A stretch of DNA of 64,000 nucleotides from Gammaproteobacteria bacterium (GTDB taxonomy: Bacteria > Pseudomonadota > Gammaproteobacteria > JABABF01 > JAHRAO01), in assembly GCA_020027215.1 (NCBI GenBank), contig JAHRAO010000038.1:30179-94178 (forward strand), in the 5' to 3' direction. The notes below the pieces were generated by a model. That model ran no database searches, was not told where the DNA came from, and saw nothing but the letters and a program-made list of their open reading frames with translations. Both the position numbers and the translations under genes were made by a program. This document shows, piece by piece, positions 944 to 51,019 of this stretch (within the stretch, counting starts at the first letter, position 1; each line of letters opens with the position of its first letter).

Positions 944-3616
944 ATGATAAATGAGCAGTATAAAAAGCCTTTAATCGTCAAAGGAAATGAGCGAGGATTT
1001 TATTATTCACTTCCGCAATTAGAAGTAGAAGGCATTGGCACAGTATCGCGCCTGCCTCTATCGATTCGCCTGGTTTTAGAATCGGTATTACGCAATTGTG
1101 ATGAAGAACGTATTACCACAAATCATATTAAGCAATTAGCCAACTGGCAACCAACAGGTAAGAGGGAGGAGGAAATTCCTTTCGTCGTTGGGCGAGTTGT
1201 TTTGCAGGATTTTACAGGAGTGCCGTTGCTTACCGATTTAGCGGCAATGCGTGATGCGACAATTGCCCAAAAGAGTCAAGCGAGCCTTATTGAACCGATG
1301 GTGCCGGTAGACCTCGTCGTCGATCATTCGGTGCAGGTGGATTATTACGGCTCGGAGAGTGCCATGCAAAAAAATATGGAGAAAGAATTTGCGCGCAATC
1401 GCGAGCGCTATGAATTTCTCAAATGGGGTGCAAATGCTTTCCAAACGTTTAATGTTGTTCCTCCGGGGATCGGCATCGTGCATCAAGTTAATTTAGAAAA
1501 TTTAGCCAAAGGTGTATTAGAGCGCGATTCGGTGTATTATCCCGATACTTTAGTGGGTACGGATTCACATACCACTATGATCAATGGCGTTGGGGTTGTC
1601 GGATGGGGTGTCGGTGGGATTGAAGCGGAGTCGGCAATGTTGGGGCAACCAGTTTATATCTTAACTCCAGATGTGATAGGCGTTCATTTACAAGGTGAAT
1701 TAGTATCGGGCGTCACGGCGACCGATTTGGTGCTCACGATTACGGAAATGCTCCGTGCAGCAAAAGTGGTGGGTAAATTTGTTGAATTTTTTGGCGAAGG
1801 GGCGCGCTCATTGTCCGTTCCTGACCGAGCAACCATTGCCAATATGGCTCCAGAATATGGCGCTACTATGGGTTTTTTCCCCATAGATGAAAAAACTATT
1901 GAGTATTTCCGTGCGACTGGACGCAGTGAAGAACATTTAGCATTGGTGACGGCTTATTATCAAGCGCAACAATGTTGGGGTATTCCATTAGCTGGCGAAT
2001 GCGATTATACACAGCAGATGGAGTTACGTCTTGACCAGATAGTTCCGTCAGTAGCGGGTCCAAAACGCCCACAAGATAGAATTGCATTATCGGCGTTGAA
2101 GAAAAAATTCCAATCGCTTTATACGCAAACGATTGTTGACGGTGGTTATGGAAAATCTATGGAACATCTAGCGCAGCGTTATCCGACAAACCAAGATGGA
2201 ATTGATATAGGCGATGGCGATATTCTTATTGCCGCCATTACCTCGTGCACGAATACATCTAATCCGAGTGTTATCCTTGCCGCAGGCTTGCTCGCTAAAA
2301 AAGCAGTGGAACGAGGGCTGAAACCATCGCCACGAGTGAAGACTTCACTTGCCCCTGGTTCGCGGGTGGTGAGCGATTATCTGCACCATGCCGGCTTGCT
2401 ACCCTACTTGGAACAAATTGGGTTTAATCAAGTCGGATACGGCTGCACAACCTGTATAGGTAATTCTGGACCACTGGCACCAGAATATGAAAAAGCCATA
2501 GTAGACCATCAACTGGTGGGCGTATCGGTTTTATCGGGTAACCGCAATTTTGAAGCGCGCGTGCATCAAAATATTCGTGCGAACTTCTTAATGAGCCCAC
2601 CTTTGGTCGTTGCGTTTGCCCTCGCTGGGCGTATTGATATTGATATGGAAAATGAACCACTGGGCACAGATCAGAATAACCAACCGGTGTATTTGCGCGA
2701 TATATGGCCATCGAGCGATGAAATTGAAGCGGTCATGCCTTATGCTATTGACCCGCAGCACTATCGTCAACGATATGAAGAGGGTTATGCAGATAAAATT
2801 ACTTTGTGGCGTGATATTCCCAGTGGTAGTGGTCATTGTTATCAATGGCAGGAAGCATCTACCTATATTCGTAAACCACCTTTCTTCAACTTGCAGGACA
2901 ATGGTGGCGAAATTTGCTCAGCGCGTGCTTTAGCGCTATTAGGCGATTCGGTCACCACCGACCATATTAGCCCAGCGGGGGCGATTAAACCTGATTCGCC
3001 GGCGGGATTGTATTTGCAAGATAATGGCGTAGATGTGGGCGATTATAATACCTACGGATCGCGCCGCGGCAACCATGAAATTATGTTGCGCGGCACTTTT
3101 GCCAATGTGCGTATTCACAACTTGATGGTTCCCGGCAGTGAAGGTGGAGTGACCACTCATATTCCGTCAAATGAAACACTATCTATTTATGATGCCGCTA
3201 TGCGTTACCAAAAAGAAGCAACCCCTTTGTTAGTTTTTGCCGGTGAGGAATACGGCACCGGCTCTTCACGCGATTGGGCAGCCAAAGGGACCCGCTTATT
3301 AGGCGTGAAAGCTGTGATTGCGAGCAGTTTTGAACGTATTCACCGTAGCAATTTAATTGGTATGGGGGTTTTACCGTGTCAGTTTGTGGATGATGTATCG
3401 GTGCAATCACTTGCCCTTACTGGGGACGAATCTTTTGATATTGTGGGTCTCACCGAAACCATTACCCCACATGAGCGAGTGACACTGCGCATTCACCGCC
3501 CCAATAGCCTTGTGGAAGAAGTGCCTTTATTAGTTCGCGTCGATACGCCGATTGAGAGCCAATACTACGCCTGTAACGGTATTTTGCCGTTTGTATTATC
3601 CCAATTAGTACACTGA
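944..3616 (+). CDS. acnA: Aconitate hydratase A
   Basis: 890 aa. Aconitase family motifs are present ([30 protein letters not shown] swivel domain). RBS GAAGGAGAA lies just upstream of the ATG. The gene stands alone and is not in a prp cluster, so AcnA is favoured over AcnD. Confidence 0.85.
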
Positions 3617-4180
3617 TGTGCCCCGTTGGGCGAGATGCTGGCGGTAGTAATGCCAACGAAAAGCTGGACCCGGGTCAGTTTTGCGTTCTGGCGCAATATC
3701 GCTATGGCCGCAGATATGCTTCATCTCAGGGTAATGGTGCTGGAGGATAAGGGTGAGGGTGACGAGAGAGTCGTATTGCGCTATTTCGTAAGGGGTATGA
3801 TCGCTCCCTTCTAATTCTACACCGATACTAAAATCATTGCATTGTGTGCGCCCTTGAAACGCCGATTGTCCGGCGTGCCACGCCGCTAAATGAAATGGCA
3901 CGTATTGCGTCATAGTGCCGTTGCGCTCAATAAAGATATGTGCGGATACCCGCAATTCATGAATAGTCGCAAAATAAGGGTGGGCCGACGGATCGAGCGT
4001 ATTACAAAATAGTTGATGAATATAGTGTGCATGAAACTCTCCCGGCGGCAAACTAATATTATGGATAACCAATAATTGAATAGGGCACCGAGATGGGCGC
4101 GGTGAGTGATTAGGGGAGGGGATATGGCGGATATTTGTTATCCATCCGTTGCGGATGTGCAGTGCATCGTCATTTTTCAT
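3605..4180 (-). CDS. ampD: 1,6-anhydro-N-acetylmuramyl-L-alanine amidase AmpD (N-acetylmuramoyl-L-alanine amidase family 2)
   Basis: [61 protein letters not shown]...WHAG...[11 protein letters not shown] aligns along its full length with E. coli AmpD. I chose the internal Met ([13 protein letters not shown]) as start. The longer 236-aa ORF would overlap gspB by 145 nt. Confidence 0.75.
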
Positions 4181-5057
4181 TGACGGCAATGCGGAATAAT
4201 TGTTCTTGGTGACGGAATACGACTTCGTTTTCAAATATTTCTTTGACGAAGATACCATTTTGCATGGTATCGCCTTGTCGCAAAAATTCATCATTGGCAA
4301 TAATAAACCGTCCATGGGTATTGTGGGGGGAAAAAACCTGTGCCGTAATCCGAATATAAGGGATTAATTGACGCTGTGGGTTCGGCAAATTTTCCCAGAA
4401 AGGTATCGTAGGGTCGGCAGCACGAGACAATGATGTGGTGTTTGTCATTGTGTGCGAGAGCAATTGTTGCGCATCGGGCACCTCTGATAGAGTATGTGCT
4501 AAAGATGTATGCGTTGAATCGCCCTGCGGAGAAAGCGGTTGGCGGGCAGTGCCTAAAAGAGTAGACGAAATAGCGCCGACAGTGTTGTCCGTAGCGACTA
4601 AATCCTTTGCAGTCGTTTGACCCATCTGTGCACTCGTAGATGAAATAGCGATAGATGCGGTGGAATCAGAATGATCCACGGACGCTGGCAAATTATCAAT
4701 GGATCCTGGTGTGTGCTGTGTGGTAATGACTGGACTCGATGGAAGAATAATAGGCTCTATTGAGGGTTGATGTTGCGTGAATGGTTGGGTACTCGGTGTG
4801 TGATTATGCAACAAAGTGGGCGATGATTCTTCGTTCCACTGTGTTGGCGGGGACACAATATTATTGTGCGTTGATTGATACCACCAAAACCATGCCGCAG
4901 CATTGAGGATAAAGATTGCGCCCCCCACGATGAATAGAATTGCTTTGTAAGATACGGGGCGTGGCGTCTCCTGCCAATCAATGCCACCGCGATCTGTATT
5001 TTTTTCGCGTAGTCGTTCACGTTCAGATTTTTTGAGCGCCTCTAAGATATAGGACAT
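4170..5057 (-). CDS. gspB: Type II secretion accessory protein GspB/ExeB-like
   Basis: N-terminus MSYILEALKKSERERLR is the signature cytoplasmic start of ExeB/GspB. It has one TM segment followed by a long Ser/Thr/Pro-rich periplasmic region. It lies directly downstream of the ExeA-like gene. Confidence 0.6.
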   Translation of the reverse strand: MSYILEALKKSERERLREKNTDRGGIDWQETPRPVSYKAILFIVGGAIFILNAAAWFWWYQSTHNNIVSPPTQWNEESSPTLLHNHTPSTQPFTQHQPSIEPIILPSSPVITTQHTPGSIDNLPASVDHSDSTASIAISSTSAQMGQTTAKDLVATDNTVGAISSTLLGTARQPLSPQGDSTHTSLAHTLSEVPDAQQLLSHTMTNTTSLSRAADPTIPFWENLPNPQRQLIPYIRITAQVFSPHNTHGRFIIANDEFLRQGDTMQNGIFVKEIFENEVVFRHQEQLFRIAVNEK

Positions 5058-5069
5058 TTGTTAATCTTA

Positions 5070-6632
5070 TTATTCATGAGTTGCTGCAGCAATTAAAAAA
5101 GGATGGCTCTGTGCGATTTTATTATTTAAGTGAATAATCGTTTGCGGTCCGAGAATGCCGTCAACAAATAGGTGATGTGTGATCTGAAATTTTTTGAGCC
5201 ATGAGCGCATATTATCCGCAGAAGGCGCAATATCTGGATTGAGTTCGCTGAAATGACGCACAAACCAATCGGGTATGTGATGAGATAAATTGATGGGTTG
5301 CGTATAATTGGGCGGTGCGCGCCACAATAATTGATAATCTCCAAACCATAAATCTTCCAATGTTTGAAGAGATATTTTTATTTTGTCGTCACCGTAAGCA
5401 ATAGTGGCGTGTCTGTCATCCAGTGCAATAAGGGCGACATGAAAAGCGCGACCATTGGGGTTGCGCAATTTATTTAATACGACTGGACGATTGAAACGGC
5501 GGAGCGATCCCATATTCCCTTTCACGGTGAGGCATTTTAATTGCCATTGCCGTGCATATGCACAGGGTAATTCGTGTTGAGTCGGTTGATAATCAATATT
5601 CCAGCGCGCAAATAAAGCCCTGAAAGCTTGTGCTTGTCCGATACGGTTCTCTTCATTTCCCCAACGGTGGAGGGTATTCCACTCGCTGGAATGATGATCT
5701 GTCGGAGGCGGTGAGTCGTAGAATAGTATAAAGACTGCGGCAATAATGCTTACTCCAGCGGCGATCCCCAGCACAGGGTAAACCGGTAAACGCGCAATGT
5801 ATTGCCATAGACGGATAGTCCATAAAGTTGTCCCTAATACTTCACGTGCCGCTTGTTTGAGTATGTGCCGAGTGATAACAGGGTGTTCTTGCGCATAGGC
5901 GCCGAGCAATGCGCGATCGCAAATGGCATTAATAATGCGCGGGATACCGTGGGTGAAGCGATACAATGGGGCAATAAGATTGCGCGCAAAAATGGGGTGA
6001 TGGATGCCAGCAATTTTTAGTCGGTGCTGCAAATAAGGATAAATTTCGTTGTGGGGGAGATGCGGCAAGTGATAGCGGGCTGTAATGCGCTGTGCCATTT
6101 GTTTGAGTTCTTGTTGATTGAGAATGTCACGTAATTCGGGTTGCCCGATTAAAATAATCTGTAGTAATTTGCGTTCGGTGGTTTCTAAATTGGTCAATAA
6201 ACGCAACTGTTCTAATGCTTCAGTGCTCAGATTTTGCGCCTCATCGATAATTAATATTGTGTTGCGCTGGCGAGCATGGGCATCCAATAAATGATCGTTG
6301 AGACGATCGAGCATGGTTTTATTTCCGCGCGCCTGTTTGGGATAACTGACCTTCAATTCATCGCATACTGCGGCGAGTAGTTCTTCTGGATTAAGTTTTG
6401 GATTAACGATCAGTGCGACATCACAATTGGCGGAGATTTGTTGTAATAAACACTGGCACAATAATGTTTTACCTGCCCCTACTTCACCAGTGAGCAGGAC
6501 AAACCCTCCGTTTTCCACGCCATATACTAAATGCGCTAATGCTTCTCGGTGATAGGTGCTGAGATACAAGTAGCGCGGATCAGGTGCAATGGAAAAAGGT
6601 TTTTCTAAAAGACCAAAATAATTTTCATACAT
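5070..6632 (-). CDS. gspA: Type II secretion accessory ATPase GspA/ExeA (AAA+ N-domain, C-terminal peptidoglycan-binding domain)
   Basis: MYENYFGLLEKPFSIAPDPRYLYLSTYHREALAHLVYGV...LLTGEVGAGKTLL matches the ExeA N-terminus with its Walker A. There is a TM segment. The C-terminal ...DGILGPQTIIHLN is a PG-binding-like motif. Confidence 0.8.
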   Translation of the reverse strand: MYENYFGLLEKPFSIAPDPRYLYLSTYHREALAHLVYGVENGGFVLLTGEVGAGKTLLCQCLLQQISANCDVALIVNPKLNPEELLAAVCDELKVSYPKQARGNKTMLDRLNDHLLDAHARQRNTILIIDEAQNLSTEALEQLRLLTNLETTERKLLQIILIGQPELRDILNQQELKQMAQRITARYHLPHLPHNEIYPYLQHRLKIAGIHHPIFARNLIAPLYRFTHGIPRIINAICDRALLGAYAQEHPVITRHILKQAAREVLGTTLWTIRLWQYIARLPVYPVLGIAAGVSIIAAVFILFYDSPPPTDHHSSEWNTLHRWGNEENRIGQAQAFRALFARWNIDYQPTQHELPCAYARQWQLKCLTVKGNMGSLRRFNRPVVLNKLRNPNGRAFHVALIALDDRHATIAYGDDKIKISLQTLEDLWFGDYQLLWRAPPNYTQPINLSHHIPDWFVRHFSELNPDIAPSADNMRSWLKKFQITHHLFVDGILGPQTIIHLNNKIAQSHPFLIAAATHE

Positions 6633-11048: not shown

Positions 11049-11060
11049 GAGTACCATGCT

Positions 11061-11147
11061 GGTGCCCAGGAGAGGACTTGAACCTCCACAACCTTACGGT
11101 CACTAGCACCTGAAGCTAGCGTGTCTACCAATTTCACCACCTGGGCG
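11061..11147 (-). tRNA. tRNA-Leu (anticodon CAG)
   Basis: The reverse complement folds as a class II tRNA. Acceptor GCCCAGG/CCTGGGC, D-arm GGTAGACAC, anticodon loop TTCAGGT (CAG), long variable arm, T-arm GGTTCAAGTCC, and a 3' CCA. Confidence 0.85.
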
Positions 11148-11230
11148 GTATGAATGCGATGATATTACTATACAATACATCACATATAATGACACATCTC
11201 TCGTTCCATATTCCATAACGGTTGGCAATA

Positions 11231-11989
11231 ATGAGGATATTGTTTGCATTATGTGCTGCCGCACTCGGAGGATTTTTTTTTGGTTCTGCTGGGTTTGTTA
11301 TCGGGCTATTGCTCGGTTTTTCTATTATCCCACGCCTACAACGCCGGAGAGCAGCACCGGTATTTTCTGAAGTTGCTTTTGCAATAATGGGACATATCGC
11401 GAAGGCAGATGGCCGGATCAGTGAGGAAGAAATCGCAGTCGCCGAGCAATTAATGGAAAAAATGAATTTGCATGGTGCGGCACGCGAGGAAGCGATCCTG
11501 TGGTATCAGTCTGGGACACAGCCACATTTTTACCTCCCGAGGGCGTTAGAACGCTTCAATCATTATTGTCGTTATCATCCGCAGTTGGGACAGCTTTTGT
11601 TATTGTTCCTTATTGAAAGTTCCCTCTCCGATGGCACATTGCATCCCAAAGAACGGGCTGTTTTGCTCCAAGTTGCCGTCAGCCTCGGTTATAATCAGGC
11701 ACAATTTGAGCACATGTTGGACATGAGTGGGGCGCAACATGGATTTTCTACCGATGATTTCCCGCAGGATACATCGCGACTAGACAATGCCTACCATGCC
11801 CTCAATATCGTATCAGATGCGTCCGATCGTGATGTCAAGCGTGCTTATCGCCAACTGATGAATCGCTATCATCCTGATAAAATGACTGCGCGTGGAGTGC
11901 CTAAAGATATGGTGCAATGGGGTACCGAGAAAACCCAGCAAATCCAATCCGCTTATAATATGATTAAAAAATCAAGAGGTATGGCATAA
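11231..11989 (+). CDS. djlA: DnaJ-like membrane co-chaperone DjlA
   Basis: N-terminal TM, a TerB-like middle region (MGHIAKADGRISEEE...), and a C-terminal J-domain with HPDK (YRQLMNRYHPDKM). It aligns with E. coli DjlA throughout. Confidence 0.8.
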   Translation: MRILFALCAAALGGFFFGSAGFVIGLLLGFSIIPRLQRRRAAPVFSEVAFAIMGHIAKADGRISEEEIAVAEQLMEKMNLHGAAREEAILWYQSGTQPHFYLPRALERFNHYCRYHPQLGQLLLLFLIESSLSDGTLHPKERAVLLQVAVSLGYNQAQFEHMLDMSGAQHGFSTDDFPQDTSRLDNAYHALNIVSDASDRDVKRAYRQLMNRYHPDKMTARGVPKDMVQWGTEKTQQIQSAYNMIKKSRGMA

Positions 11990-12507
11990 TGACGACTCGC
12001 ATTCACCTCTGTTTGTTGATATTTCTACAGGCATTGGCAACCGATCTTATCGCTGGACAATCCCCCCCACAGGAACAGCAATCTCTGCCCGCTACGCAGC
12101 ATGTGCAATTATTGGGTGCTACTATTGGTAGTGATAGGGATGAGATGATGCGCCGTATTTCTCGGCGTTATCGCCGCTCGCCCAATTGTCATCGCGTAGA
12201 TGGAAATGAAAAGTGCACACTACACCAAGTCATAGGCCGTCCGATGTATATGCATTTGTATCGCGTTCCTTTCAAACATGTTTCATGGGTATTTAGAGGC
12301 ACAAAACTTATTCAAGTGGATGTTGTATTATTTGACGGTGCAAAATATGTGCCTGACTATTCCAACATTATTGATCGCTTCAACAAACAATACGGGCAAA
12401 AAAATAAGCGGATGGGTAATGTGTTATACTGGAGCAATGACGATGCAACCATACAGTTTGATACCACCCGCGGAGCAATTTCTTTAAGGGAAAATAGAGA
12501 GCAATGA
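11989..12507 (+). CDS. Hypothetical secreted protein (signal peptide, no recognisable domain)
   Basis: MTTRIHLCLLIFLQALATDLIAG is a signal peptide. Its start overlaps the djlA stop (TAATG) and its stop overlaps the protease start (ATGA), so it is translationally coupled on both sides. Confidence 0.5.
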   Translation: MTTRIHLCLLIFLQALATDLIAGQSPPQEQQSLPATQHVQLLGATIGSDRDEMMRRISRRYRRSPNCHRVDGNEKCTLHQVIGRPMYMHLYRVPFKHVSWVFRGTKLIQVDVVLFDGAKYVPDYSNIIDRFNKQYGQKNKRMGNVLYWSNDDATIQFDTTRGAISLRENREQ

Positions 12508-13493
12508 AAATATTACTTGTGCGAGGATTCATTTGTTTGGTGATTTATGTGCCAATCAATTTATGGGCAGATGTTCCGGTAACGATTATCGGCGGTCAAT
12601 TAGCGGATAATAACGAGTATCCGTATGCTGTTGGGTTAGCTGATCCGCGTAAAACATCGGATACAGAATCAGTTTTTTGTGGCGGTAGCTTGGTGGGCGA
12701 TAAATGGGTGCTCACCGCTGCACATTGTGTTGTTGCGGATGATAGTTCAACATCAGAACCAGCCGCAACACGGCCACTTCCAGCCAATGAAATAGAAGTC
12801 GTCATCGGCAAAACTAATTTTGCCGATAGTACCACTCGGCGTTTCTCAGTGAGAAGAGTCATTTTACACCCCCAATATGTTTCTTCCGCTACAGCATCAG
12901 TAGAATATAGTGATATAGCGTTAGTAGAATTAAATAGCACGGTAACCAATCAAGTTGTAGGGCTCGCTTCGCCTACTGACGGACAAAATGCAACGGTCGT
13001 AGGTTGGGGGGTAACGTCGAGTGGCGATGACGCTCGTGCTTCTGATCGTTTGCTTGAAGTCACGCTACCCATTGTCCCTTTATCCACATGCCAATCAGTA
13101 TATATGAATGAATTGAGGGACAATATGCTTTGTGCAGGTACACGAGAGGGCGGCAAGGATTCGTGCCAAGGTGATAGTGGTGGTCCGTTATTGATTTCAC
13201 AAAATTCACAATTGCGGCAAGCGGGGATTGTTAGTTTTGGTGAAGGATGTGCAGAACCGGGTGTTTATGGAGTCTATACGCGCGTTGATTGCTATCTTCC
13301 TTGGCTTAATACAGTCACTGGATTAACTTTTAGTACGAGCGGGACTATCTCCTGCGGTAGTACTGGTGGTGGCGGTGGCGGCGGTTGTACAATGTCTGCT
13401 ACGCAACATACTACGCCGCTTGTGTGGTTGATTCCACTGATGCTTGCCGCCTACCGCTTTATTCGCCGGCGAATGCGTGTCCGCTTGCTTTGA
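12504..13493 (+). CDS. Secreted trypsin-like (S1) serine protease with a GlyGly-CTERM sorting signal (VesB-like)
   Basis: Signal peptide, then IIGG at the mature N-terminus. Catalytic triad motifs TAAHCV, DIALVEL and GDSGGPL. The C-terminus is GSTGGGGGGGC, then the hydrophobic LVWLIPLMLAAY, then RFIRRRMRVRLL. That is a Gly-rich tract followed by a TM helix followed by a basic cluster. Confidence 0.8.
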   Translation: MKILLVRGFICLVIYVPINLWADVPVTIIGGQLADNNEYPYAVGLADPRKTSDTESVFCGGSLVGDKWVLTAAHCVVADDSSTSEPAATRPLPANEIEVVIGKTNFADSTTRRFSVRRVILHPQYVSSATASVEYSDIALVELNSTVTNQVVGLASPTDGQNATVVGWGVTSSGDDARASDRLLEVTLPIVPLSTCQSVYMNELRDNMLCAGTREGGKDSCQGDSGGPLLISQNSQLRQAGIVSFGEGCAEPGVYGVYTRVDCYLPWLNTVTGLTFSTSGTISCGSTGGGGGGGCTMSATQHTTPLVWLIPLMLAAYRFIRRRMRVRLL

Positions 13494-13519: not shown

Positions 13520-14737
13520 GTGGGTGCATACAGCTACCAAGCCATTGCTGTCGGCGGTAAGAAAATAAAAGGCGTTATTGAAGGTGATTCGGAACGGCAC
13601 GTCCGCTCACTGCTCCGCGAAAAAAATCTCAAACCTATTAAAGTAACAGTCACCGCTGCGCAAATTAATGGGCAGACCAGTGGCTTTGCATTCTTCCAAC
13701 CGCGCATTAAAATAGCCGATTTGGCATTGATTACTCGCCAATTGGCTATTTTATTACAAGCGGGATTGCCGCTGGATGAAGCTTTGCAAACCACCGCTCG
13801 CCAAACACGTAAGGCACGGTATACCGGTATGCTCTTGCAAGTGCGCTCGCGAGTGACCGAAGGGCATACTTTAGCCCATGCCCTTGCTGAATACCCAAAA
13901 ATATTCAATGACCTTTATCGTGCTATGGTGCAAGCGGGCGAGCATGCTGGATTTTTAGGCGAAGTATTGGAGCAATTAGCAGAGTACACCGAAGCGCGCC
14001 AACAAGTACAGCAAGAATTGAGTGGTGCTATGATATACCCGATCATTCTAGCGTTGATTGCTTTTGCCGTTGTGGGAGGATTAATGGCTTTTTTAGTTCC
14101 CGAATTGGTGCGTATGTTTGAAAATACAGGCAACGAACTTCCTTTACTCACTCGTATTATTATTGCCGTTAGCGATTATGTCGTCGCTTACGGACTTTGG
14201 ACACTTGGAGGCATGTTGGGTTTGTGGTTTTTAACCATGTTTATTCTGCGTAACCGCAATAATTTAGCGCGTTTCCATCGTGTGGTGTTAAAGATCCCCG
14301 TAATCGGATATTTAATACGCATTGCCAACGCAGCACGATTTTCTAACACCCTCAGCATATTAATGAGTAGCGGAGTGCCTTTGCTGGAAGCCTTGCGCAT
14401 CGCAGGTGAAGTATTATCCAATTTGGTGATGCGTGATTCGTGTTTAGCGATCATCAATGATGTGCGCGAGGGGGGGAGTTTGTACCGTGCATTGGAAAAG
14501 ACCCAGCAATTTCCACCAATGATGGTACATATGGTGGCGAGTGGTGAGGCGAGCGGGGAATTGGAACAAATGCTCACTAAAGTTGCCAATAATCAGGATA
14601 GGGAATTGCGTGCTTATTTGAAAACCGCAATGAACCTGCTTGAACCTTTAATGGTGATCGGTATGGGCGGGATGGTATTGCTGATCGTGCTATCTATTTT
14701 ATTACCTGTCTTTAATCTCAATGATTTGGTAAAATAA
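13520..14737 (+). CDS. gspF: Type II secretion system inner-membrane platform protein GspF
   Basis: 405 aa with three TM segments and GspF/PilC-family repeats. GTG start preceded by AAAGG. N-terminus (M)GAYSYQAIAVGGKKIKGVIEGDSERHV resembles EpsF/GspF. Confidence 0.85.
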   Translation: MGAYSYQAIAVGGKKIKGVIEGDSERHVRSLLREKNLKPIKVTVTAAQINGQTSGFAFFQPRIKIADLALITRQLAILLQAGLPLDEALQTTARQTRKARYTGMLLQVRSRVTEGHTLAHALAEYPKIFNDLYRAMVQAGEHAGFLGEVLEQLAEYTEARQQVQQELSGAMIYPIILALIAFAVVGGLMAFLVPELVRMFENTGNELPLLTRIIIAVSDYVVAYGLWTLGGMLGLWFLTMFILRNRNNLARFHRVVLKIPVIGYLIRIANAARFSNTLSILMSSGVPLLEALRIAGEVLSNLVMRDSCLAIINDVREGGSLYRALEKTQQFPPMMVHMVASGEASGELEQMLTKVANNQDRELRAYLKTAMNLLEPLMVIGMGGMVLLIVLSILLPVFNLNDLVK

Positions 14738-14783
14738 TGGTGAAGGGTCAATGAATCAATGCATAATAAAAGAAGGTAATACC

Positions 14784-15227
14784 ATGCACGCATATCAAAA
14801 TTTGCATAAAAAGCAAAGAGGGTTTAGCCTGATTGAGATATTGGTCGTACTAGTGATCATGGGTATTCTTATTTCTTTAGTTGCTCCCAACGTCCTCAAT
14901 CGTATTGGACAAGCGCAGTCCCAAAAAGTATTCAGCGATTTTAAGGCTATTGAGACGGCTTTGACGATGTATAAATTGGATAATTTCAAGTATCCCGATA
15001 GTCAGCAGGGACTGAATGCATTGGTGGGTGGTGACAATTCGGGTTCGGGGTCTCATTGGCGCAAAGGCGGCTATTTGAAAGATACGCCTAAAGATCCATG
15101 GAATCAACCCTATAAATACTTAAGCCCAGGCCAAAACGGCGAGTACGATCTCTATACTTTAGGTGCAGATAATGCAGTCGGTGGTGAAGGGCAAGATGCC
15201 GATATCGGTAATTGGCAGGAAAAATAA
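14784..15227 (+). CDS. gspG: Type II secretion major pseudopilin GspG
   Basis: Prepilin leader MHAYQNLHKKQRG|FSLIEILVVLVIMGIL. Good RBS AAGAAGG before the ATG at 14784. Confidence 0.9.
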   Translation: MHAYQNLHKKQRGFSLIEILVVLVIMGILISLVAPNVLNRIGQAQSQKVFSDFKAIETALTMYKLDNFKYPDSQQGLNALVGGDNSGSGSHWRKGGYLKDTPKDPWNQPYKYLSPGQNGEYDLYTLGADNAVGGEGQDADIGNWQEK

Positions 15228-15834
15228 TAGACAGAGCGACTACCCCGCATTACGGGGATTTACTCTACTTGAAATACTAGTTGTCGTTTTTGTTATCGGT
15301 TTGGCGGCAAGTGTGGTCACCCTAACCATTAACCGTAGCCCAGATTCCCGAATTAAAAAAGCAACCGAGCAATTGTATAACAATCTCAGTTTGGCACAAG
15401 AAGAGGCTGTATTGCAGAATAATTGGTTGGGATTACGGTTAGAACGGGATGAAGACAGAACGGGCTATAATCGTTATCGTTGGTTGTTTTCCACCGATGA
15501 AGCGCAGACGTGGCAACAAATGACGAGTCAATTTTTTAGTGATGTCCAGCTGGGGGAATCACTCCAAATCATTTTAGAAATTGAAGATGGTATTGAACCA
15601 TCACGCGAGCAGGAACGCTTAGATTCCAATCTTTTTTTTGCCAACCCTTCACCCGATGAAGACGAACAGGAAGAAAAACGCCCCCAAGAACCGCCACCGC
15701 ATATCATATTTTACCCAGATGGCGGTAGCGACCCTTTTACAATTACAGTCAACCATCAAGACGGTGAGGGTGAAGAGTTAGCAATAGTTGGTGATGCGTT
15801 AGGGCGGTTAACTATACCTCACCCTGATGAATAA
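15196..15834 (+). CDS. gspH: Type II secretion minor pseudopilin GspH
   Basis: ...ALRG|FTLLEILVVVFVIGLAASVV is a prepilin-type N-terminus. Start is uncertain: ATG at 15196 or 15163. Confidence 0.75.
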   Translation: MPISVIGRKNNRQSDYPALRGFTLLEILVVVFVIGLAASVVTLTINRSPDSRIKKATEQLYNNLSLAQEEAVLQNNWLGLRLERDEDRTGYNRYRWLFSTDEAQTWQQMTSQFFSDVQLGESLQIILEIEDGIEPSREQERLDSNLFFANPSPDEDEQEEKRPQEPPPHIIFYPDGGSDPFTITVNHQDGEGEELAIVGDALGRLTIPHPDE

Positions 15835-16243
15835 GCATTCTCCCCGCACAACTGGTTTTACGCTATTGGAGGTATTGATTGCGCTCGCTATCGTGGCTAT
15901 TGCTCTACCGCCACTCCTCACCAACGCAATTGAGCAAATGAATGGTATTGGTCAATTACGCGAGCGCACTATTGCCCAATGGGTGGCACTCAATCGATTG
16001 ACTGCATTGAGATTGACCAACCATCACAGTGGAAAAGTCGCTCGCGGCCGTAGTAGCGGTCGTAGCGATATGTCTGGTGCGGTGTGGTATTGGACTGTCG
16101 AAACACAGGATACCGAATTGAAGAATTTTTACAAAATTGAAGTATCGGTTAGCGCTCAAGAAAACGGTGCAGCTTTAATTACTTTATCAACCTATTTGAA
16201 TGAATTTACCCCTGACCCTCCCCCGCGCTCGGGACTCAATTAG
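15827..16243 (+). CDS. gspI: Type II secretion minor pseudopilin GspI
   Basis: MNKHSPRTTG|FTLLEVLIALAIVAIALP. Confidence 0.8.
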   Translation: MNKHSPRTTGFTLLEVLIALAIVAIALPPLLTNAIEQMNGIGQLRERTIAQWVALNRLTALRLTNHHSGKVARGRSSGRSDMSGAVWYWTVETQDTELKNFYKIEVSVSAQENGAALITLSTYLNEFTPDPPPRSGLN

Positions 16244-16247
16244 ATCT

Positions 16248-16892
16248 GTGACTCGTATTCAAGTGGCTGGATTTACTTTAATTGAGGTTCTGATCGCGAT
16301 GGCGATCAGTGCTATAGTCGGTGTGATGGCATTTAGTAGTTTGGACGTGACCAGTCGTGCCTTAGATGTTAATCGCCGTTATGCTGAACGCTTGAGCGAA
16401 GTTAATCGCACCTGGGCAGTGATCGCACGCGATCTGCGTCAAACTATTCCGCGCAGTGTGCGTAACCAATACGGTACTGCGCAAGCGGCTTTATTTGGTG
16501 GCTCAGCAACGCAACCGATATTAGAATTGACGCGCACCGGCTGGATCAATCCGCGGAAACTTTATCGTAGTTCAATGCAACGGGTGAGTTATCACTGGGA
16601 GAACGATAGCCTTTACCGTGAATATTGGCAAAATTTAGATCGTTCAACCCAAAGTCAACCTATCCGTAGCTTATTGTTAGAAGGCGTTACTGATTTTAGG
16701 TTGCGGTTCTTAGATGGCAGTAATGACATCAGTGGCGGGAATGACAATGTATTCGGCGGAATCTGGCGCGAGGATTGGAATGCGAATGCCGTGGAGAGTT
16801 CGTCTATTGCGATGCCTCTTGCTATTGAAGTGACCATTGAGATGGACGATTGGGGCGAAGCACGACGTTTATTTGCTTTGGCGACGCCATGA
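16248..16892 (+). CDS. gspJ: Type II secretion minor pseudopilin GspJ
   Basis: ...IQVAG|FTLIEVLIAMAISAIVG. A GTG at 16248 directly after the gspI stop gives a short leader. The alternative ATG at 16200 is inside gspI. Confidence 0.75.
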   Translation: MTRIQVAGFTLIEVLIAMAISAIVGVMAFSSLDVTSRALDVNRRYAERLSEVNRTWAVIARDLRQTIPRSVRNQYGTAQAALFGGSATQPILELTRTGWINPRKLYRSSMQRVSYHWENDSLYREYWQNLDRSTQSQPIRSLLLEGVTDFRLRFLDGSNDISGGNDNVFGGIWREDWNANAVESSSIAMPLAIEVTIEMDDWGEARRLFALATP

Positions 16893-17956
16893 AGTATTGT
16901 GCTTCCCATAGCGTTTGCGGCGCTGCCTTGATTATTGCTTTACTCGTACTGAGTTTGGTGTCTACTTTGACTGTCGGCATGAGCCAATTTTATATGATTA
17001 CAGTGAAGCGGCATAGCAATACTTACCACGGTGAACAGGCATATATGTTTTTAACCGGTGCTGAAAACTTAGCCCGCCATTGGTTACATACGGAAATTAA
17101 AGAAGACAAACGTGATAACGAATTGAGAGATCATTTAGGCGAAACTTGGGCGCTCACTATACCGCCATTTGAAATAGATGGCGGATTGTTAGAGATCCAG
17201 TTAGAAGATTTGTCTGCTAAATTAAATATTAGTGGGCTCATTAATCGCGATGCTAATCAAGTGGGCAAGCTAGGCGCTGTGCCGTATAATATCCAACAGA
17301 GGCGCTTTATCCGTTTGTTGCAAACATATACGACCAGCAATTACTCTATTAGCACGCCTTTACTCAATCAACAACAGGCGATCCAATTGACGCAGGCATT
17401 AGTGGATTGGTTAGACGACGATAGCCGTGTATCGGGCACCGATAGTATGGAAGATGATGATTATATTGCAGAGTATGGATATCGTGCAGCAAATACTTTG
17501 CCACTCAGCACAACGGAATTACAATTATTACCCTTTTTCCGCAGAATTCCAGGACTATTGGCGCAACTCTACAATGATATTACTGTGTGGCCATTACAGG
17601 GTGATAAAATCAACATTCATACAGCGACCAATAATGTGTTGCGTAGCCTCTATACTGGCAATGGGCTTGCACCATTGGCGAGTGAAGATATTGAGCGGTT
17701 ATTATCCAATAATAACCGCCGAACAAAATGGGCGAGTAAAGAAGTGGGTGGTTTTCTAAGTTTAGAAAGTTTTTTACAACATCCGGTGTGGAATAATAGA
17801 GTGAATAATAGTTATCTTACCGAAACCAGTGAGTATTTTTTGTTTACCGGTAAAGTCACTTTGGGAGAAGTCAGCCGTCAAATGAAAAGCGTATTACACC
17901 GTGATCCAAATACCTTTGCGGTAAAAGCTGTCGTCCGTAGCTTAAGCACACTATGA
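16889..17956 (+). CDS. gspK: Type II secretion minor pseudopilin GspK
   Basis: MKYCASHSVCGAALIIALLVLSLVSTL is a GspK-like N-terminus. ATGA overlap with the gspJ stop. Confidence 0.75.
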   Translation: MKYCASHSVCGAALIIALLVLSLVSTLTVGMSQFYMITVKRHSNTYHGEQAYMFLTGAENLARHWLHTEIKEDKRDNELRDHLGETWALTIPPFEIDGGLLEIQLEDLSAKLNISGLINRDANQVGKLGAVPYNIQQRRFIRLLQTYTTSNYSISTPLLNQQQAIQLTQALVDWLDDDSRVSGTDSMEDDDYIAEYGYRAANTLPLSTTELQLLPFFRRIPGLLAQLYNDITVWPLQGDKINIHTATNNVLRSLYTGNGLAPLASEDIERLLSNNNRRTKWASKEVGGFLSLESFLQHPVWNNRVNNSYLTETSEYFLFTGKVTLGEVSRQMKSVLHRDPNTFAVKAVVRSLSTL

Positions 17957-19188
17957 AATTACTCATTTTGCGCCCGTCCTCACAGACCGATTGCTATGAT
18001 ATTGGAATCTATGCTGAAAAAAGTGCTTGCTTTTATCGTCAGGCGCATACTCCTGTACAAGAAATAAAAAAGCACGTCCGCAATGAAAAAATGCACATTC
18101 TTTTATTATTACCCGCTGAAGTGGTGTTGCTGGATACTTTAGAATTTTCTCCTACCGAACGCCGCCATCTCAATGAAATACTTCCGTATTTGCTGGAAGA
18201 GAAGCTCATTGATGATGTAGATACTTTGCATTGTGCTTACAGTATCACCGATAGTGCTGAAGGAAAAGCATCTGTTGCTGTGGTGGAGCGCGATACCTTC
18301 AGAAAATGGCTCACTCCGTTAGAAGAAAACGATTTATTCCCTGACCAAGTGGTTGCCGAACAACAAGCGCTCCCCACGGTTGAGCAACAATGGACGGGTT
18401 ACTATGGTAATGGATATTTATTGTTGAAATGTGATGCATCCATGGCATTATGTGCGCACCATAATATAGCACAGGCGGCATTAGATTTATTGATCCAAGA
18501 TAAGAAAAAAAAATTACCGACCAATATCATGATTGGGGTCGCCAACGATCACGATCGTCAGGAGGCGCTCGCATTCATTCCAAAAAAAGCGACCCCCAAT
18601 ATTACTTTTGAACAGAGAGATTTTTTTGATATGGTCGCTTTGGCGCATACCGCTCGATCCCCCGCTATCAATTTGTTACAGGGGAATTTTGCCTTAGCTA
18701 TTCCGTGGCAACAATTGTGGCAACAATGGCAAGGCGTCATTGTGGCGGGCGCTATTGCATTGACGGTACTCTTGACCGAAGTCGGGTTGGAATGGCATTC
18801 TGCTCACACGCATAATCGTCAATTACAACAAGCGGTGCAAGAGTTGTATAGCCAATCTTTTGCCAACAGCCCCCTCCCTGCCGACCCATTAGCCTACTTA
18901 AAGTCTCGTTTACAACCTTTACAACGTGTCAATAGTACAAGCGGGTTTTCTGTATTATTGGAAAAAGTGGGGGGCGGCATTCGTCAAGTGCCGGGAATCC
19001 GTATAGACAATATTAACTATAACGGGCAATCGGGTGAAATGAAGGTGGGTATTCTATCCCCAGATTTCCAACGGGTTACGGACTTACGCAATCAGTTGAA
19101 TCTCGTTGGAGTGGAAGTGAAATTGATCAATAGCACTTCGGATAACAACATCATCCGCGCCAATTTATCCTGCCGACAACAGACATGA
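17953..19188 (+). CDS. gspL: Type II secretion protein GspL
   Basis: 411 aa. Cytoplasmic domain, one TM (IVAGAIALTVLL), then a periplasmic domain. Start overlaps the gspK stop. Confidence 0.7.
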   Translation: MKLLILRPSSQTDCYDIGIYAEKSACFYRQAHTPVQEIKKHVRNEKMHILLLLPAEVVLLDTLEFSPTERRHLNEILPYLLEEKLIDDVDTLHCAYSITDSAEGKASVAVVERDTFRKWLTPLEENDLFPDQVVAEQQALPTVEQQWTGYYGNGYLLLKCDASMALCAHHNIAQAALDLLIQDKKKKLPTNIMIGVANDHDRQEALAFIPKKATPNITFEQRDFFDMVALAHTARSPAINLLQGNFALAIPWQQLWQQWQGVIVAGAIALTVLLTEVGLEWHSAHTHNRQLQQAVQELYSQSFANSPLPADPLAYLKSRLQPLQRVNSTSGFSVLLEKVGGGIRQVPGIRIDNINYNGQSGEMKVGILSPDFQRVTDLRNQLNLVGVEVKLINSTSDNNIIRANLSCRQQT

Positions 19189-19655
19189 TAAAAGATTGGT
19201 TGAATAGATTGACAAGTCGTGAGCAATGGTTAGTGCTCGTCATGGGTGCGGGTTTAGTAGTATTGATTGGATATAACGCACTGTGGCAACCATTGAGCAC
19301 AGCCACGCAGACATTACGGGATAAAAATACTTATGCTCACGACACGATTGAATGGATGGTCCAAAACAAAAAAGCAATCAATAGCTTGGGGGAGAGCGGT
19401 ATTGCGTCATCTGATGCCACTGGATTATCGGATATCCTCAATCAATCCATTTCACATCGTGGACTACGCATGAGTCGTTTTCAGCCCGGAGAAAATAATC
19501 AAGCACAGGTCTGGTTAGACGATGTCGTTTTTGATACGCTCGTTTTGTGGCTTCACGATTTAGAGATAACCTATGGTTTGAGTATTCTCAATTTAACCAT
19601 TAATAGTCGCGATACCCTCGGCGAAGTCAATGTGCGCTTGCGCATTCAACAATAA
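19185..19655 (+). CDS. gspM: Type II secretion protein GspM
   Basis: 156 aa. MIKDWLNRLTSREQWLVLVMGAGLVVLIGYNALWQPL matches the GspM N-terminus and TM. Confidence 0.75.
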   Translation: MIKDWLNRLTSREQWLVLVMGAGLVVLIGYNALWQPLSTATQTLRDKNTYAHDTIEWMVQNKKAINSLGESGIASSDATGLSDILNQSISHRGLRMSRFQPGENNQAQVWLDDVVFDTLVLWLHDLEITYGLSILNLTINSRDTLGEVNVRLRIQQ

Positions 19656-19667
19656 AAACAGTCAACA

Positions 19668-20444
19668 ATGAAGTTACTGCCATTTCCTATCCCGCGTGTG
19701 CGTACCATCCTCTTCGTCATAATCCTATTGGTCTTTTTTCTAATTTATAATGCCCCAGCGCGCTTAGTTCATTATGTGTTACCGCCCAATGAAGGGACCG
19801 TATTACCTTATGACATTCAAGGCACCATCTGGAATGGATCTATCGGTACTCTTTTTGTCCAAACCCCCAAACAATGGTTACACTTTAATCAATTGCGCTG
19901 GCAATTATCGCCATGGCATCTCTTTGCTGGGCAATTACGTTATAGGGTGACCTTACAATATTTGCGTCACCCTGCTTTTGCCCATATTGTGTTGCATTTT
20001 GGTGGGATCGATATGGAGCAAGTCCAGATGAGTGGTTTGCCACTGAAGCATTTCCGTGATCTTTTACCTCTTCCTTTAGACGGACAACTCATTATCAATC
20101 TAGAGAGGGTAGAGTTACGGCACCGAGAAATCACGACTATACAGGGTGCTGTTGCTTGGAGTGGTGCGGCAGCGATTATTGGGAGTAATGTAGAAGATTT
20201 TGGCGATTTTTCAATGAAAATTACGACCCCTGAAGAAGGGCAGTTTGCTGGAGAATTGACCGATTTTGGAGGGCATTTAGCATTGAATGGCGGCGCAACA
20301 TATCAGGATAAAAAATTTTCAGTCAAAGTGGAAATTGAGGTGCGTGATTCAGCAAGTCCATCATTGCGCCACGGTGTGCAACTCATTGCTCGCCCACTCG
20401 GCAATAATCGTTTCTTACTAGAATACTCTGGGAATGTGCCCTAA
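19668..20444 (+). CDS. gspN: Type II secretion protein GspN-like
   Basis: 258 aa. N-terminal membrane anchor with a PAR motif (NAPARLVHYVLP), then a periplasmic domain. It is the last gene of the gsp operon, where GspN sits in Aeromonas and Vibrio. Confidence 0.55.
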   Translation: MKLLPFPIPRVRTILFVIILLVFFLIYNAPARLVHYVLPPNEGTVLPYDIQGTIWNGSIGTLFVQTPKQWLHFNQLRWQLSPWHLFAGQLRYRVTLQYLRHPAFAHIVLHFGGIDMEQVQMSGLPLKHFRDLLPLPLDGQLIINLERVELRHREITTIQGAVAWSGAAAIIGSNVEDFGDFSMKITTPEEGQFAGELTDFGGHLALNGGATYQDKKFSVKVEIEVRDSASPSLRHGVQLIARPLGNNRFLLEYSGNVP

Positions 20445-21353: not shown

Positions 21354-21656
21354 ATGAGTAAAGAAAATAATTTGAATAAAAAAAGCTTGGCTGTTGCCTT
21401 AGGCTCAGTATTCCTTGCTTCTTCCATTGTTCCGTTAGCGAGCGCAGAAAGTACTAATCCTTTCCAAGCAGAGTCACTACAGCATGGTTATGAAGAAGTG
21501 AATTATGGCAGCAAAGCGCCCAAAGGTGAAGAAGGGAAATGTGGTGAAGGCAAATGCGGCGACAAGAAGAAAGGCGAAGGGAAATGTGGTGAAGGCAAAT
21601 GTGGTGACAAGAAGAAAGGCGAAGGGAAGTGCGGCGAGGGCAAATGCGGCCACTAA
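21354..21656 (+). CDS. Secreted RiPP precursor of the Hvf/bufferin type, with tandem EGKCG repeats
   Basis: Sec signal peptide MSKENNLNKKSLAVALGSVFLASSIVPLASA. The core is KGEEGKCGEGKCGDKKK GEGKCGEGKCGDKKK GEGKCGEGKCGH: six Cys, each in an EGKCG motif. It lies immediately upstream of a DUF692 gene. Confidence 0.8.
   Translation: MSKENNLNKKSLAVALGSVFLASSIVPLASAESTNPFQAESLQHGYEEVNYGSKAPKGEEGKCGEGKCGDKKKGEGKCGEGKCGDKKKGEGKCGEGKCGH
21525..21653 (+). repeat. 2.8 tandem copies of a 45-bp unit encoding GEGKCGEGKCGDKKK
   Basis: Copy A 21525-21572 (48 bp, one extra GAA codon). Copy B 21573-21617. Partial copy C 21618-21653. Nucleotide identity between copies is over 90%. Confidence 0.9.
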
Positions 21657-22507
21657 AAGAAGCTGCTACAGTTGTTTCCGGATCTGGGTTAGGCTTAAGA
21701 CGTGATTTCATCACTGACATATTGACCCAGCTTCCGGAGCAAGTGGATTTCATGGAAGTTGCTCCTGAAAACTGGATAGGGATCGGGGGACAGCATGGAA
21801 AACAATTCAGTGCTCTTGCCGAGCATTATCCGATTACGCTACATGGCTTATCGCTCAACATTGGAGGACCAGATCCTTTAGATACAAAACTGATTGATAA
21901 TATTCGCCAATTTATTGATCGCTATCAATGTCCTTTTTACTCCGAACATCTCACTGCCTGTGGGGATCATGGGCACTTGTATGATTTAATGCCGTTGCCT
22001 TTTACCGAAGAGGCGGTGCACTATGTTGCCGAACGAGTGAAAGAAGTACAGGATAGGTTAGGGATGCGTATAGCCTTGGAAAACGCTTCGTACTATACAG
22101 CGTTACAACAAGATTTAAGTGAAAGTGATTTTATCTGTGCAGTATTAAAAGAAGCGGATTGCGATCTGTTGCTGGATATCAACAATATATATGTCAATAG
22201 CGTCAATCATTCGTATGATCCAATTCAATTCTTACGCCGCCTACCCGTGGAACGGGCTATTTATTTCCATATTGCGGGACATTACCGCGAGGCAGAGGAT
22301 TTGCGTATCGATACGCATGGGGCAGATGTGTTAGCAAGAGTGTGGTTTTTGTTGGAAGAAGCCTACCGTCTATTTGGTAGTCAACCGACCTTACTAGAAC
22401 GAGATTTTAATATTCCCCCCTTAGAAACGCTGTTGCTGGAAGTTGAGAGAGTGCGGGCTTTACAGTCCTGTTATTCAGATGACTACAGCTTGCAAGCCGC
22501 GTTATAA
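21629..22507 (+). CDS. DUF692 (UPF0276) multinuclear non-heme iron oxidase (MNIO), MbnB/HvfB/BufB family
   Basis: GLGLRRDFITDIL...DFMEVAPENW...YPITLHGLSLNIGGPDPLD...YSEHL is the canonical DUF692 TIM-barrel pattern. Start is uncertain: the ATG at 21629 overlaps the precursor by 28 nt. Confidence 0.8.
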   Translation: MRRGQMRPLKEAATVVSGSGLGLRRDFITDILTQLPEQVDFMEVAPENWIGIGGQHGKQFSALAEHYPITLHGLSLNIGGPDPLDTKLIDNIRQFIDRYQCPFYSEHLTACGDHGHLYDLMPLPFTEEAVHYVAERVKEVQDRLGMRIALENASYYTALQQDLSESDFICAVLKEADCDLLLDINNIYVNSVNHSYDPIQFLRRLPVERAIYFHIAGHYREAEDLRIDTHGADVLARVWFLLEEAYRLFGSQPTLLERDFNIPPLETLLLEVERVRALQSCYSDDYSLQAAL

Positions 22508-50941: not shown

Positions 50942-51017
50942 GCCGGAATAGCTCAGATGGTAGAGCAGTTCACTCGTAATGAAAAGGTCGGAGGTTCGAC
51001 TCCTCTTTCCGGCACCA
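50942..51017 (+). tRNA. tRNA-Thr (anticodon CGU)
   Basis: GCCGGAATAGCTCAGATGGTAGAGCA...anticodon loop CTCGTAA...GGTTCGACTCC...TTCCGGCACCA. Cloverleaf is consistent; 3' CCA is encoded. Confidence 0.8.
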
Positions 51018-51019
51018 TA

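Follow-up and report, generated by a model that had tools for sequence, protein, structure and literature searches.

The cysteine-type C-terminal sorting signals MYXO-, JDVT-, Synerg- and CGP-CTERM have been matched with CPBP-family 'myxosortases' only recently. In JDVT-CTERM, one invariant Cys is followed nine residues on by an almost invariant Asp-Pro, and then by a helix rich in Leu and a cluster of Arg; there is usually one such tail per genome, its CPBP-family protease MrtJ is encoded adjacently in 16 of 17 cases, and a link to a type II secretion system (T2SS) is undescribed for it (Haft, 10.1101/2023.06.07.544157). In Myxococcus xanthus, cleavage and sorting to the surface were shown to depend on MrtX in the case of MYXO-CTERM (tail of TraA: CGTTADATP...FLLLL...RPRR), whose clients require the T2SS to reach the surface, and lipidation of the Cys is so far a proposal (PMC11980579). 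Among the Cys-type signals, the link to the T2SS is experimental in Myxococcus only, and comes from phylogenetic profiling for Synerg-CTERM. In GlyGly-CTERM, the signature abuts the membrane helix without a spacer (10.1101/2023.06.07.544157); the Vibrio cholerae protease VesB, which has an Ig-fold domain and an autoactivation site between Arg32 and Ile33, carries such a tail, and this tail system also uses the T2SS (PMC6219818). Here we analyse a trypsin-like protease of 329 amino acids (aa) encoded directly upstream of the T2SS gene gspF in 64,000 nucleotides (nt) of a gammaproteobacterial contig (JAHRAO010000038.1), a stretch referred to below as the window.

The protease gene occupies positions 12504-13493, with an ATG start and a TGA stop; unless stated otherwise, coordinates are those of the window and features lie on its plus strand. 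By analogy with the systems above, and with moderate confidence, we favour the view that it encodes a surface protease, made as a pre-pro-protein with a Cys-type signal of the JDVT-/MYXO-CTERM kind, which would be cut by a CPBP-family enzyme and exported by the T2SS. An initial annotation of the same DNA had read the tail as a GlyGly-CTERM signal.

The C-terminal tail

Behind the catalytic domain, a short linker (residues 271-287; 13314-13364) leads to the tail, and AlphaFold models no additional fold there; the linker contains a second cysteine, Cys284, outside the region matched by JDVT-CTERM. The tail then runs G288-G294, C295, TMSATQHTT, P305-LVWLIPLMLAAY and RFIRRRMRVRLL. The seven-glycine run with Cys295 (residues 288-295; 13365-13388) forms the signature motif of a Cys-type signal, and the JDVT-CTERM match begins within it at residue 290. 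The polar spacer TMSATQHTT (residues 296-304; 13389-13415), predicted to be disordered, is followed by the hydrophobic membrane segment PLVWLIPLMLAAY with its internal Pro (residues 305-317; 13416-13454), and the protein ends with an Arg-rich cytoplasmic cluster before the TGA stop (residues 318-329; 13455-13493). AlphaFold places a helix at residues 309-328, within which Pro311 sits. The initial annotation had described a tripartite tail of G7-C, a hydrophobic helix and a terminal segment, and this three-part layout stands, except that the helix does not come directly after G7-C: ten polar residues (TMSATQHTTP) separate Cys295 from the hydrophobic core. T304-P305 occupy the positions +9/+10 from Cys295, at which JDVT-CTERM has D-P.

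When the whole protein was scanned with NCBIfam, the sole match in the tail was to JDVT-CTERM (NF033191, cut-off 27 bits), at 23.1 bits. The isolated tail scored 27.0-27.4 bits with this model, at its cut-off, and 15.9-18.1 bits with MYXO-CTERM (TIGR03901), below the cut-off of 20 bits. GlyGly-CTERM (TIGR03501, cut-off 15.5 bits) matched neither the whole protein nor, even at E up to 10, the isolated tail. Tails of homologous trypsins served as controls. By a simple motif rule, the 30 tailed proteins among the top 120 protease homologues were sorted into 15 GlyGly-type, 12 Cys-type and 3 other membrane tails, so that the first two types occur at similar frequency on these trypsin-like proteases. 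Three of six GlyGly-type tails lacking a Cys (P0120, P0097 and P0110) matched TIGR03501 with 15.8-20.8 bits, while the other three remained below its cut-off and none of the six matched JDVT-CTERM. Four Cys-type tails (P0052, P0075, P0036 and P0082 of Geovibrio) gave 23.4-30.1 bits with JDVT-CTERM; its cut-off was reached by two of them, and that of MYXO-CTERM also by two of the four.

The tail was then dissected in silico. Starting from 27.4 bits with JDVT-CTERM and 18.1 bits with MYXO-CTERM for the wild type, replacement of Cys295 by Ser or Gly reduced the JDVT-CTERM score to 10.2 and 11.4 bits, respectively, a loss of about 16-17 bits, and deletion of Cys295 reduced it to 16.0 bits. When both the Cys and the spacer were deleted, so that the glycine run abutted the helix, neither JDVT-CTERM nor GlyGly-CTERM matched. 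Exchange of the Thr at +9 for Asp (T304D) raised the JDVT-CTERM score to 29.3 bits, a gain of only 1.9 bits, and none of four shuffled tails gave a JDVT-CTERM match. A local profile built from 11 Cys-type homologue tails, this protein excluded, scored 26.8 bits on the tail, versus 1.1 bits, in two fragments, for a profile built from the 15 GlyGly-type tails. Against the C-termini of 926 open reading frames (ORFs) from the window and 18 further loci, the Cys-type profile matched, beyond its training set, only this tail and that of an unrelated S8 protease of Geovibrio thiophilus (26.4 bits).

The tail shows four elements of the JDVT-CTERM description: its signature Cys, a Pro at +10, a helix and an Arg cluster. 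On these matches it is assigned to the cysteine-type class, closest to JDVT-CTERM though atypical and at threshold, and not to GlyGly-CTERM. In the GlyGly-CTERM alternative, a rhombosortase would cut in or after the glycine run and attach a glycerophosphoethanolamine-type anchor, and the T2SS would display the enzyme like VesB of V. cholerae. The VesB precedent (PMC6219818) speaks for it, as do the seven-glycine run, the helix-breaking Pro in the membrane segment and the Arg cluster, together with the 15 of 30 tailed homologues classed as GlyGly-type by the motif rule, of which three of six scanned pass TIGR03501. But TIGR03501 misses the protein, the isolated tail and even the engineered tail in which the glycines abut the helix, the GlyGly signature normally adjoins the membrane segment whereas here 11 residues including a Cys intervene, the two local profiles differ as stated, and no rhomboid-like protein was identified in the window. 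We regard this alternative as quite improbable. The initial GlyGly-CTERM call was thus not borne out, given that its model misses this tail yet recognizes half of the homologous GlyGly-type tails scanned, and that the JDVT-CTERM match depends on Cys295; a run of glycines before a C-terminal helix is insufficient for such a call. With it, the prediction of a rhombosortase partner loses its support, and the partner expected for a Cys-type tail is a CPBP-family glutamic intramembrane protease (MrtJ/MrtX-like).

Catalytic domain and N-terminus

The S1A trypsin-fold catalytic domain (residues 28-270; 12585-13313) was delimited with Pfam, phmmer against the PDB, BLASTP, and AlphaFold with Foldseek. 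Pfam Trypsin (PF00089) covers residues 28-268 (6.8e-55, 186.7 bits, cut-off 20.6), with the IIGG motif beginning at residue 28, and in the PDB residues 28-269 align with mature trypsin-family chains from their residue 1. The catalytic triad is His74 (TAAHC), Asp137 (SDIAL) and Ser225 (GDSGG), and Asp219 (KDSCQGDSGGP) occupies the S1-pocket position. In a BLASTP alignment with bovine trypsin (36% identity), I28, H74, D137, D219 and S225 pair with Ile16, His57, Asp102, Asp189 and Ser195, and the trypsin-type S1 pocket (Asp189, Gly216, Gly226) corresponds to D219, G246 and G256. The triad and the disulfide pairs C59/C75, C196/C210 and C221/C249 are invariant across a 34-sequence alignment of bacterial homologues (A1), and so are G246 and G256. 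The AlphaFold model based on this alignment (mean predicted local distance difference test score, pLDDT, 82.4) shows a folded core at 28-272, disorder at 287-305 and a terminal helix at 309-328; with it, Foldseek retrieved solved trypsin-fold catalytic domains exclusively (target-normalised TM-score up to 0.90, E down to 5e-24). By all these comparisons the protein is an intact S1A enzyme with a predicted trypsin-type (Arg/Lys) pocket, which agrees with the intact His/Asp/Ser triad reported initially.

Behind the catalytic His, the '60-loop' (VVADDSSTSEPAATRPLPANEIE; residues 76-100, 12716-12800) is extended by an insertion of about 15 residues, and insertions of a similar kind are present in several bacterial homologues. 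By analogy with the 60-loop of thrombin, it could limit substrate access.

The N-terminus reads MKILLVRGFICLVIYVPINLWA-DVPVT-IIGG. Residues 1-22 (12504-12569) have the features of a Sec signal peptide, with MKILLVR, a hydrophobic core and NLWA, and are modelled as a helix at 2-15. The cleavage site was deduced by the -3/-1 rule for signal-peptidase sites, and the best site is probably that between LWA22 and D23, cleavage between T27 and I28 being disfavoured because Pro would fall at -3. Cleavage after Ala22 would leave a putative pro-peptide of five residues, DVPVT (residues 23-27; 12570-12584), with the non-tryptic Thr27 at P1. In most of the 30 tailed homologues, the P1 residue before I[IV]GG is R or K, and it is Phe in the Geovibrio group. 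The view that the enzyme needs no pro-peptide, proposed on the reading that IIGG directly follows the signal peptide, is unlikely in the light of this rule-based site, and so is tryptic self-activation with Thr at P1.

The initial annotation had also ascribed to the protease exactly the architecture of VesB. This could not be upheld: no Ig-like domain was found in the protease, where only the 17 residues of the linker lie between the catalytic domain and the glycine run and the AlphaFold model contains none, and its P1 residue is Thr in place of the Arg of the Arg32-Ile33 site. Nor is VesB among the top 60 sequence matches or the top 50 fold matches of the protease in the PDB.

Gene neighbourhood

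The first gene of the transcription unit, djlA (11222-11989; NF006948, 239 bits, cut-off 162; Pfam TerB and DnaJ), encodes an inner-membrane DnaJ-like co-chaperone; according to the gene caller of the public contig it starts at 11231. It is followed by a gene for a hypothetical exported protein of 172 aa with an N-terminal hydrophobic signal (11989-12507), the protease gene and gspF (13520-14737; TIGR02120, 484 bits, cut-off 424), which has a GTG start and whose product begins with MGAYSYQAI, the same as in its relatives. Downstream lie gspG, H, I, J, K, L, M and N (14751-20444; TIGR01710 for GspG; Pfam GspH, T2SSI, T2SSJ, T2SSK_1st, T2SSL with GspL_C, T2SSM and T2SSN) and then a convergent dienelactone hydrolase gene. 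djlA and the 172-aa gene overlap in TAATG, the 172-aa gene and the protease gene in ATGA (4 nt), and a gap of 26 nt separates the protease stop (13493) from the GTG of gspF (13520). As no terminator-like site was seen between these two genes, the protease is likely to be co-transcribed with gspF-N. The initial statement that the gene is translationally coupled in the T2SS operon therefore holds for the start/stop overlaps with the upstream genes and for gspF-N directly downstream, but not across the 26-nt gap to gspF.

On the upstream side, the unit is bounded by a tRNA-Leu(CAG) gene between purA and djlA (11060-11146, minus strand; ARAGORN, Rfam tRNA 53.8 bits). The T2SS accessory genes gspB (4170-5057) and gspA (5070-6632) lie about 7 kb upstream of gspF on the minus strand (4170-6632; Pfam T2SSB; AAA_22 with GspA_C39-like); they adjoin ampD, and gspF-N is a separate block, so that the T2SS genes are split. 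In L010, a related locus, gspC-D-E-F come after an aconitase gene; in the window, the genes after the aconitase gene (944-3616) are ampD-gspB-gspA, encoded on the opposite strand, a comparison that suggests a rearrangement. The tRNA-Leu(CAG) gene, at the upstream edge of the djlA-hyp-protease-gsp unit, may also lie at a rearrangement breakpoint.

Among 5.8 billion proteins, no relative of GspF is more than 60% identical to it, and those with a name are mostly from Halieaceae (56-58%). In four of four related GspF loci (52-60% identity), gspE directly precedes gspF, which argues that the djlA-hyp-protease-gspF junction is a derived one; none of the sampled relatives shares it so far. The adjacency to gspF could thus be an accident of rearrangement without functional meaning, so that the protease would not be a 'dedicated' operon-encoded substrate; this would be compatible with any reading of the tail. 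The order of genes in those four loci, the tRNA-Leu gene at the upstream boundary and the lack of a known T2SS role for djlA would fit an accident, as would the finding that no homologous tailed protease is T2SS-linked (seven loci sampled) and that the arrangement is seen in one genome only. On the other side stand the tight packing of the genes, with overlaps, a 26-nt gap and no terminator-like site, and the need of both known analogous tail systems for the T2SS. In addition, base composition and codon usage near those of the neighbours indicate that the arrangement is not recent: the GC content of the protease gene is 47.1%, with 44.8 ± 1.8% for the window, and its GC content at third codon positions is 1.9 standard deviations (SD) low. 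We consider a meaningless adjacency possible but doubtful. A recent horizontal transfer of the protease was rejected, as its GC content and its codon usage deviate from the mean of the window by no more than about 2 SD.

The 172-aa protein has no Pfam or NCBIfam match, and among 5.8 billion proteins its sole match was its own 99%-identical copy. HMMER against 1.84 billion representatives returned two weak full-length matches only, P0246 (E 2e-4) and P0247 (E 1e-3), which share an RRxRRxPxC...C motif. P0247 carries a lipobox-like LTGC. A single-sequence AlphaFold model (pLDDT 52.9) was too poor for a fold search. The protein is unrelated to the small exported proteins found beside other Cys-tailed trypsins. 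Speculatively, it may be a dedicated partner of the protease such as a chaperone or an inhibitor. An identity as an ecotin-like inhibitor was considered and found unsupported, with no family match.

Tailed relatives of the protease

The exact protease sequence was found on one 154-kb NCBI contig and one Logan contig (run SRR27685851) only. The closest homologues among those aligned are at most 46% identical to the protease. At seven sampled loci with tailed homologous trypsins, no CPBP or rhomboid gene was adjacent. In Geovibrio thiophilus (CP035108.1; L002, 10001-13494), a Cys-tailed trypsin gene stands beside a convergent gene for a 776-aa S8 protease, and both products end in GGGGGC...helix...RKK. 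About 3.5 kb away from this trypsin gene there is a gene for a T2SSE/MshE-type ATPase. The S8 tail points to a multi-client Cys-type system, with at least two clients, in a Deferribacteres genome, outside the taxa described for JDVT- and MYXO-CTERM.

At four loci, a conserved exported protein of 133-138 aa with no Pfam match is encoded divergently from Cys-tailed trypsins (minus strand; L003 9505-9918, L004 181-594, L013 9479-9895 and L016 1521-1922), and two of the four (L013 and L016) have a lipobox-like AGC. This protein may be a cognate partner or inhibitor of the Cys-tailed trypsins. Three tandem trypsin genes lie at 8659-12137 of L014 and L015, in a metagenomic contig of Thiotrichales/Chromatiales type; the GlyGly-type tail is clear in two of their products (46 and 39 bits with the local profile) and weak in the third.

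Proposed maturation and export

Under the favoured reading, the protein would be exported by Sec and lose its signal peptide, and its C-terminal helix would keep the folded enzyme on the inner membrane. By analogy with MYXO-CTERM and MrtX, Cys295 would then be modified, probably by lipidation, and a CPBP protease of MrtJ/MrtX type, with its gene outside the window, would cut the chain immediately behind this residue. The T2SS, of which gspF-N are encoded downstream, would take the lipid-anchored enzyme to the cell surface, as the gene linkage and the T2SS dependence of MYXO- and GlyGly-CTERM clients suggest; GspN, from the same operon, might speculatively be involved. Removal of DVPVT by a non-tryptic activity would free Ile28. 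Since the T2SS serves both of the tail systems of this kind that have been characterised (PMC6219818, PMC11980579), it is reasonable to infer that surface display here would depend on it too.

Several observations weigh against this reading. The JDVT-CTERM score is just at threshold for the isolated tail and below it in the full-length protein (23.1 versus 27 bits), and Thr replaces the Asp that is almost invariant in the DP motif. No MrtJ is encoded beside the protease, whose gene is flanked by that of the 172-aa hypothetical protein and by gspF, whereas JDVT-CTERM clients had theirs adjacent in 16 of 17 cases. No CPBP-like polytopic protein was found in the window or in the 2 kb to its left, an extension that contains TonB/ExbB-type genes only. 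A hydropathy scan of all six frames yielded seven polytopic membrane proteins in the window. Six were identified, as OadB, RseC, GspF, a polysaccharide flippase, a GT4 transferase and a CptA-like protein, and among these there was neither a rhomboid nor a CPBP protease; the seventh, the ORF at 38127-38495 (123 aa), was not compared with family libraries. A KdtA-type transferase with five hydrophobic stretches was also scanned and is neither rhomboid nor CPBP. gspC, D, E and O were not found in the window, so that a complete T2SS is only presumed, and none of the seven sampled loci has its tailed trypsin in a T2SS operon, the linkage thus coming from a single genome. Lipidation of the Cys, finally, is unproven even in the MYXO-CTERM model system (PMC11980579).

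Some of these points would suit an ordinary, unprocessed membrane anchor, with which the protein would be a periplasm-facing inner-membrane protease for quality control or T2SS-related processing, and not a secreted cargo. No sorting enzyme was found nearby (window and 2 kb to the left), the JDVT-CTERM match is under its cut-off in the full-length context, the upstream djlA encodes an inner-membrane co-chaperone, and a non-tryptic pro-peptide could hold the enzyme latent. However, the Cys-type match is position-specific and Cys-dependent, not compositional, the same type of tail occurs on secreted S1 and S8 proteases of unrelated phyla, and a hydrophobic core of only about 13 residues behind a long, flexible stretch of Gly is what sorting signals that are cleaved typically have. 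We therefore hold an unprocessed anchor to be unlikely.

S1 proteases with a sorting tail are ordinary, and Cys-type tails on trypsins exist in databases, although no description of them was found in the literature consulted. What is new here is a JDVT-like, sub-threshold tail without the DP Asp and without an adjacent MrtJ, inside a gsp operon. If the Cys-type reading is true, the co-transcribed protease and gspF-N would be direct genomic evidence for JDVT-like clients leaving via the T2SS, and would offer a compact one-client model in which to study where the tail is cut, whether its Cys is lipidated, as hypothesised, and whether GspN plays a part. More tentatively, and with a good deal of doubt, the protein might be the first Cys-type (myxosortase-class) client encoded in a proteobacterial gsp operon and stand for a distinct JDVT-like subclass (TP for DP, non-adjacent sorting enzyme), a C-terminally lipidated surface protease handed to the co-expressed T2SS, perhaps via GspN, with the upstream ORFan as its dedicated chaperone or inhibitor.

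Other features of the window

A complete HvfA/HvfB/HvfC cluster, for an oxazolone/thioamide metallophore of the ribosomally synthesized and post-translationally modified peptide class, lies at 21354-23246 on the plus strand. The HvfA precursor (100 aa; NF050137, 55.4 bits, cut-off 19.5) carries six GKCG repeats behind its signal peptide, and the genes after it encode HvfB, the MNIO maturase (415 bits), and HvfC (298 bits). A tRNA-Thr(CGT) gene (50942-51017, plus strand) overlaps the listed start of a GT4-family ORF (50957-52063), and the true start of the latter must therefore be further downstream. Housekeeping proteins of the window are unusually divergent, and its GC content is 44.6%; ribosomal protein L20 (58331-58699), for instance, visibly differs from its E. 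coli counterpart. The source lineage appears to be poorly sampled and divergent.

Comparison with known systems

With JDVT-CTERM/MrtJ (NF033191, NF033192), the tail shares a single signature Cys, a Pro ten residues after it, a Leu-rich helix, an Arg cluster and a proteobacterial host. It is likewise the only such tail in the region examined, and the score of the isolated tail, at the cut-off, is strongly Cys-dependent. It differs in the Thr that replaces the DP Asp, in the 23.1 bits of the full-length protein, in the lack of an adjacent MrtJ and in the position of its gene inside a T2SS operon.

MYXO-CTERM/MrtX is the best mechanistic analogue. Both tails have Gly before an invariant Cys, a polar spacer ending in T-P (as in TraA), a helix and an Arg cluster. 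Unlike MYXO-CTERM tails, this one remains at 15.9-18.1 bits (cut-off 20) and has Pro311 in its helix, where MYXO-CTERM has neither Pro nor charged residues. The host, with a gammaproteobacterial gene content, is not a myxobacterium, and MYXO-CTERM is a housekeeping system with many clients.

VesB of Vibrio cholerae, with its GlyGly-CTERM tail and the rhombosortase RssP, resembles the protease in being a trypsin-like S1 enzyme that has a three-part tail and, at its other end, a signal peptide and a short pro-peptide, and T2SS-dependent surface display would be plausible for the protease too. Here, in contrast, GlyGly-CTERM does not match, a Cys and a spacer stand between the Gly run and the helix, the Ig-fold is absent and P1 is Thr27, not Arg. 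vesB is not known to be encoded within the eps operon.

The uncharacterised Cys-tailed S1/S8 proteases of, for example, Geovibrio thiophilus and Seleniivibrio and the metagenomic P0052, P0064 and P0075 have comparable tails (Gly run, Cys, S/T-rich spacer, helix and RRK) on trypsin domains 37-40% identical to this one, with similar JDVT-CTERM and MYXO-CTERM scores, and the Geovibrio group also has a non-tryptic pro-peptide of five residues. They differ by a shorter spacer (SP at +7/+8, or Pro absent) and by genes outside T2SS operons, and in Geovibrio at least two clients lie side by side.

Recent work has linked GspN to the export of lipoproteins to the surface by the T2SS (PMC12802150). With a lipid on Cys295, the protease would resemble the GspN-requiring PulA and InvL as a lipid-anchored T2SS client, with gspN in its own operon. 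Those proteins, in turn, are lipidated at the Cys of an N-terminal lipobox by Lgt/Lsp/Lnt, and not at a C-terminal Cys.

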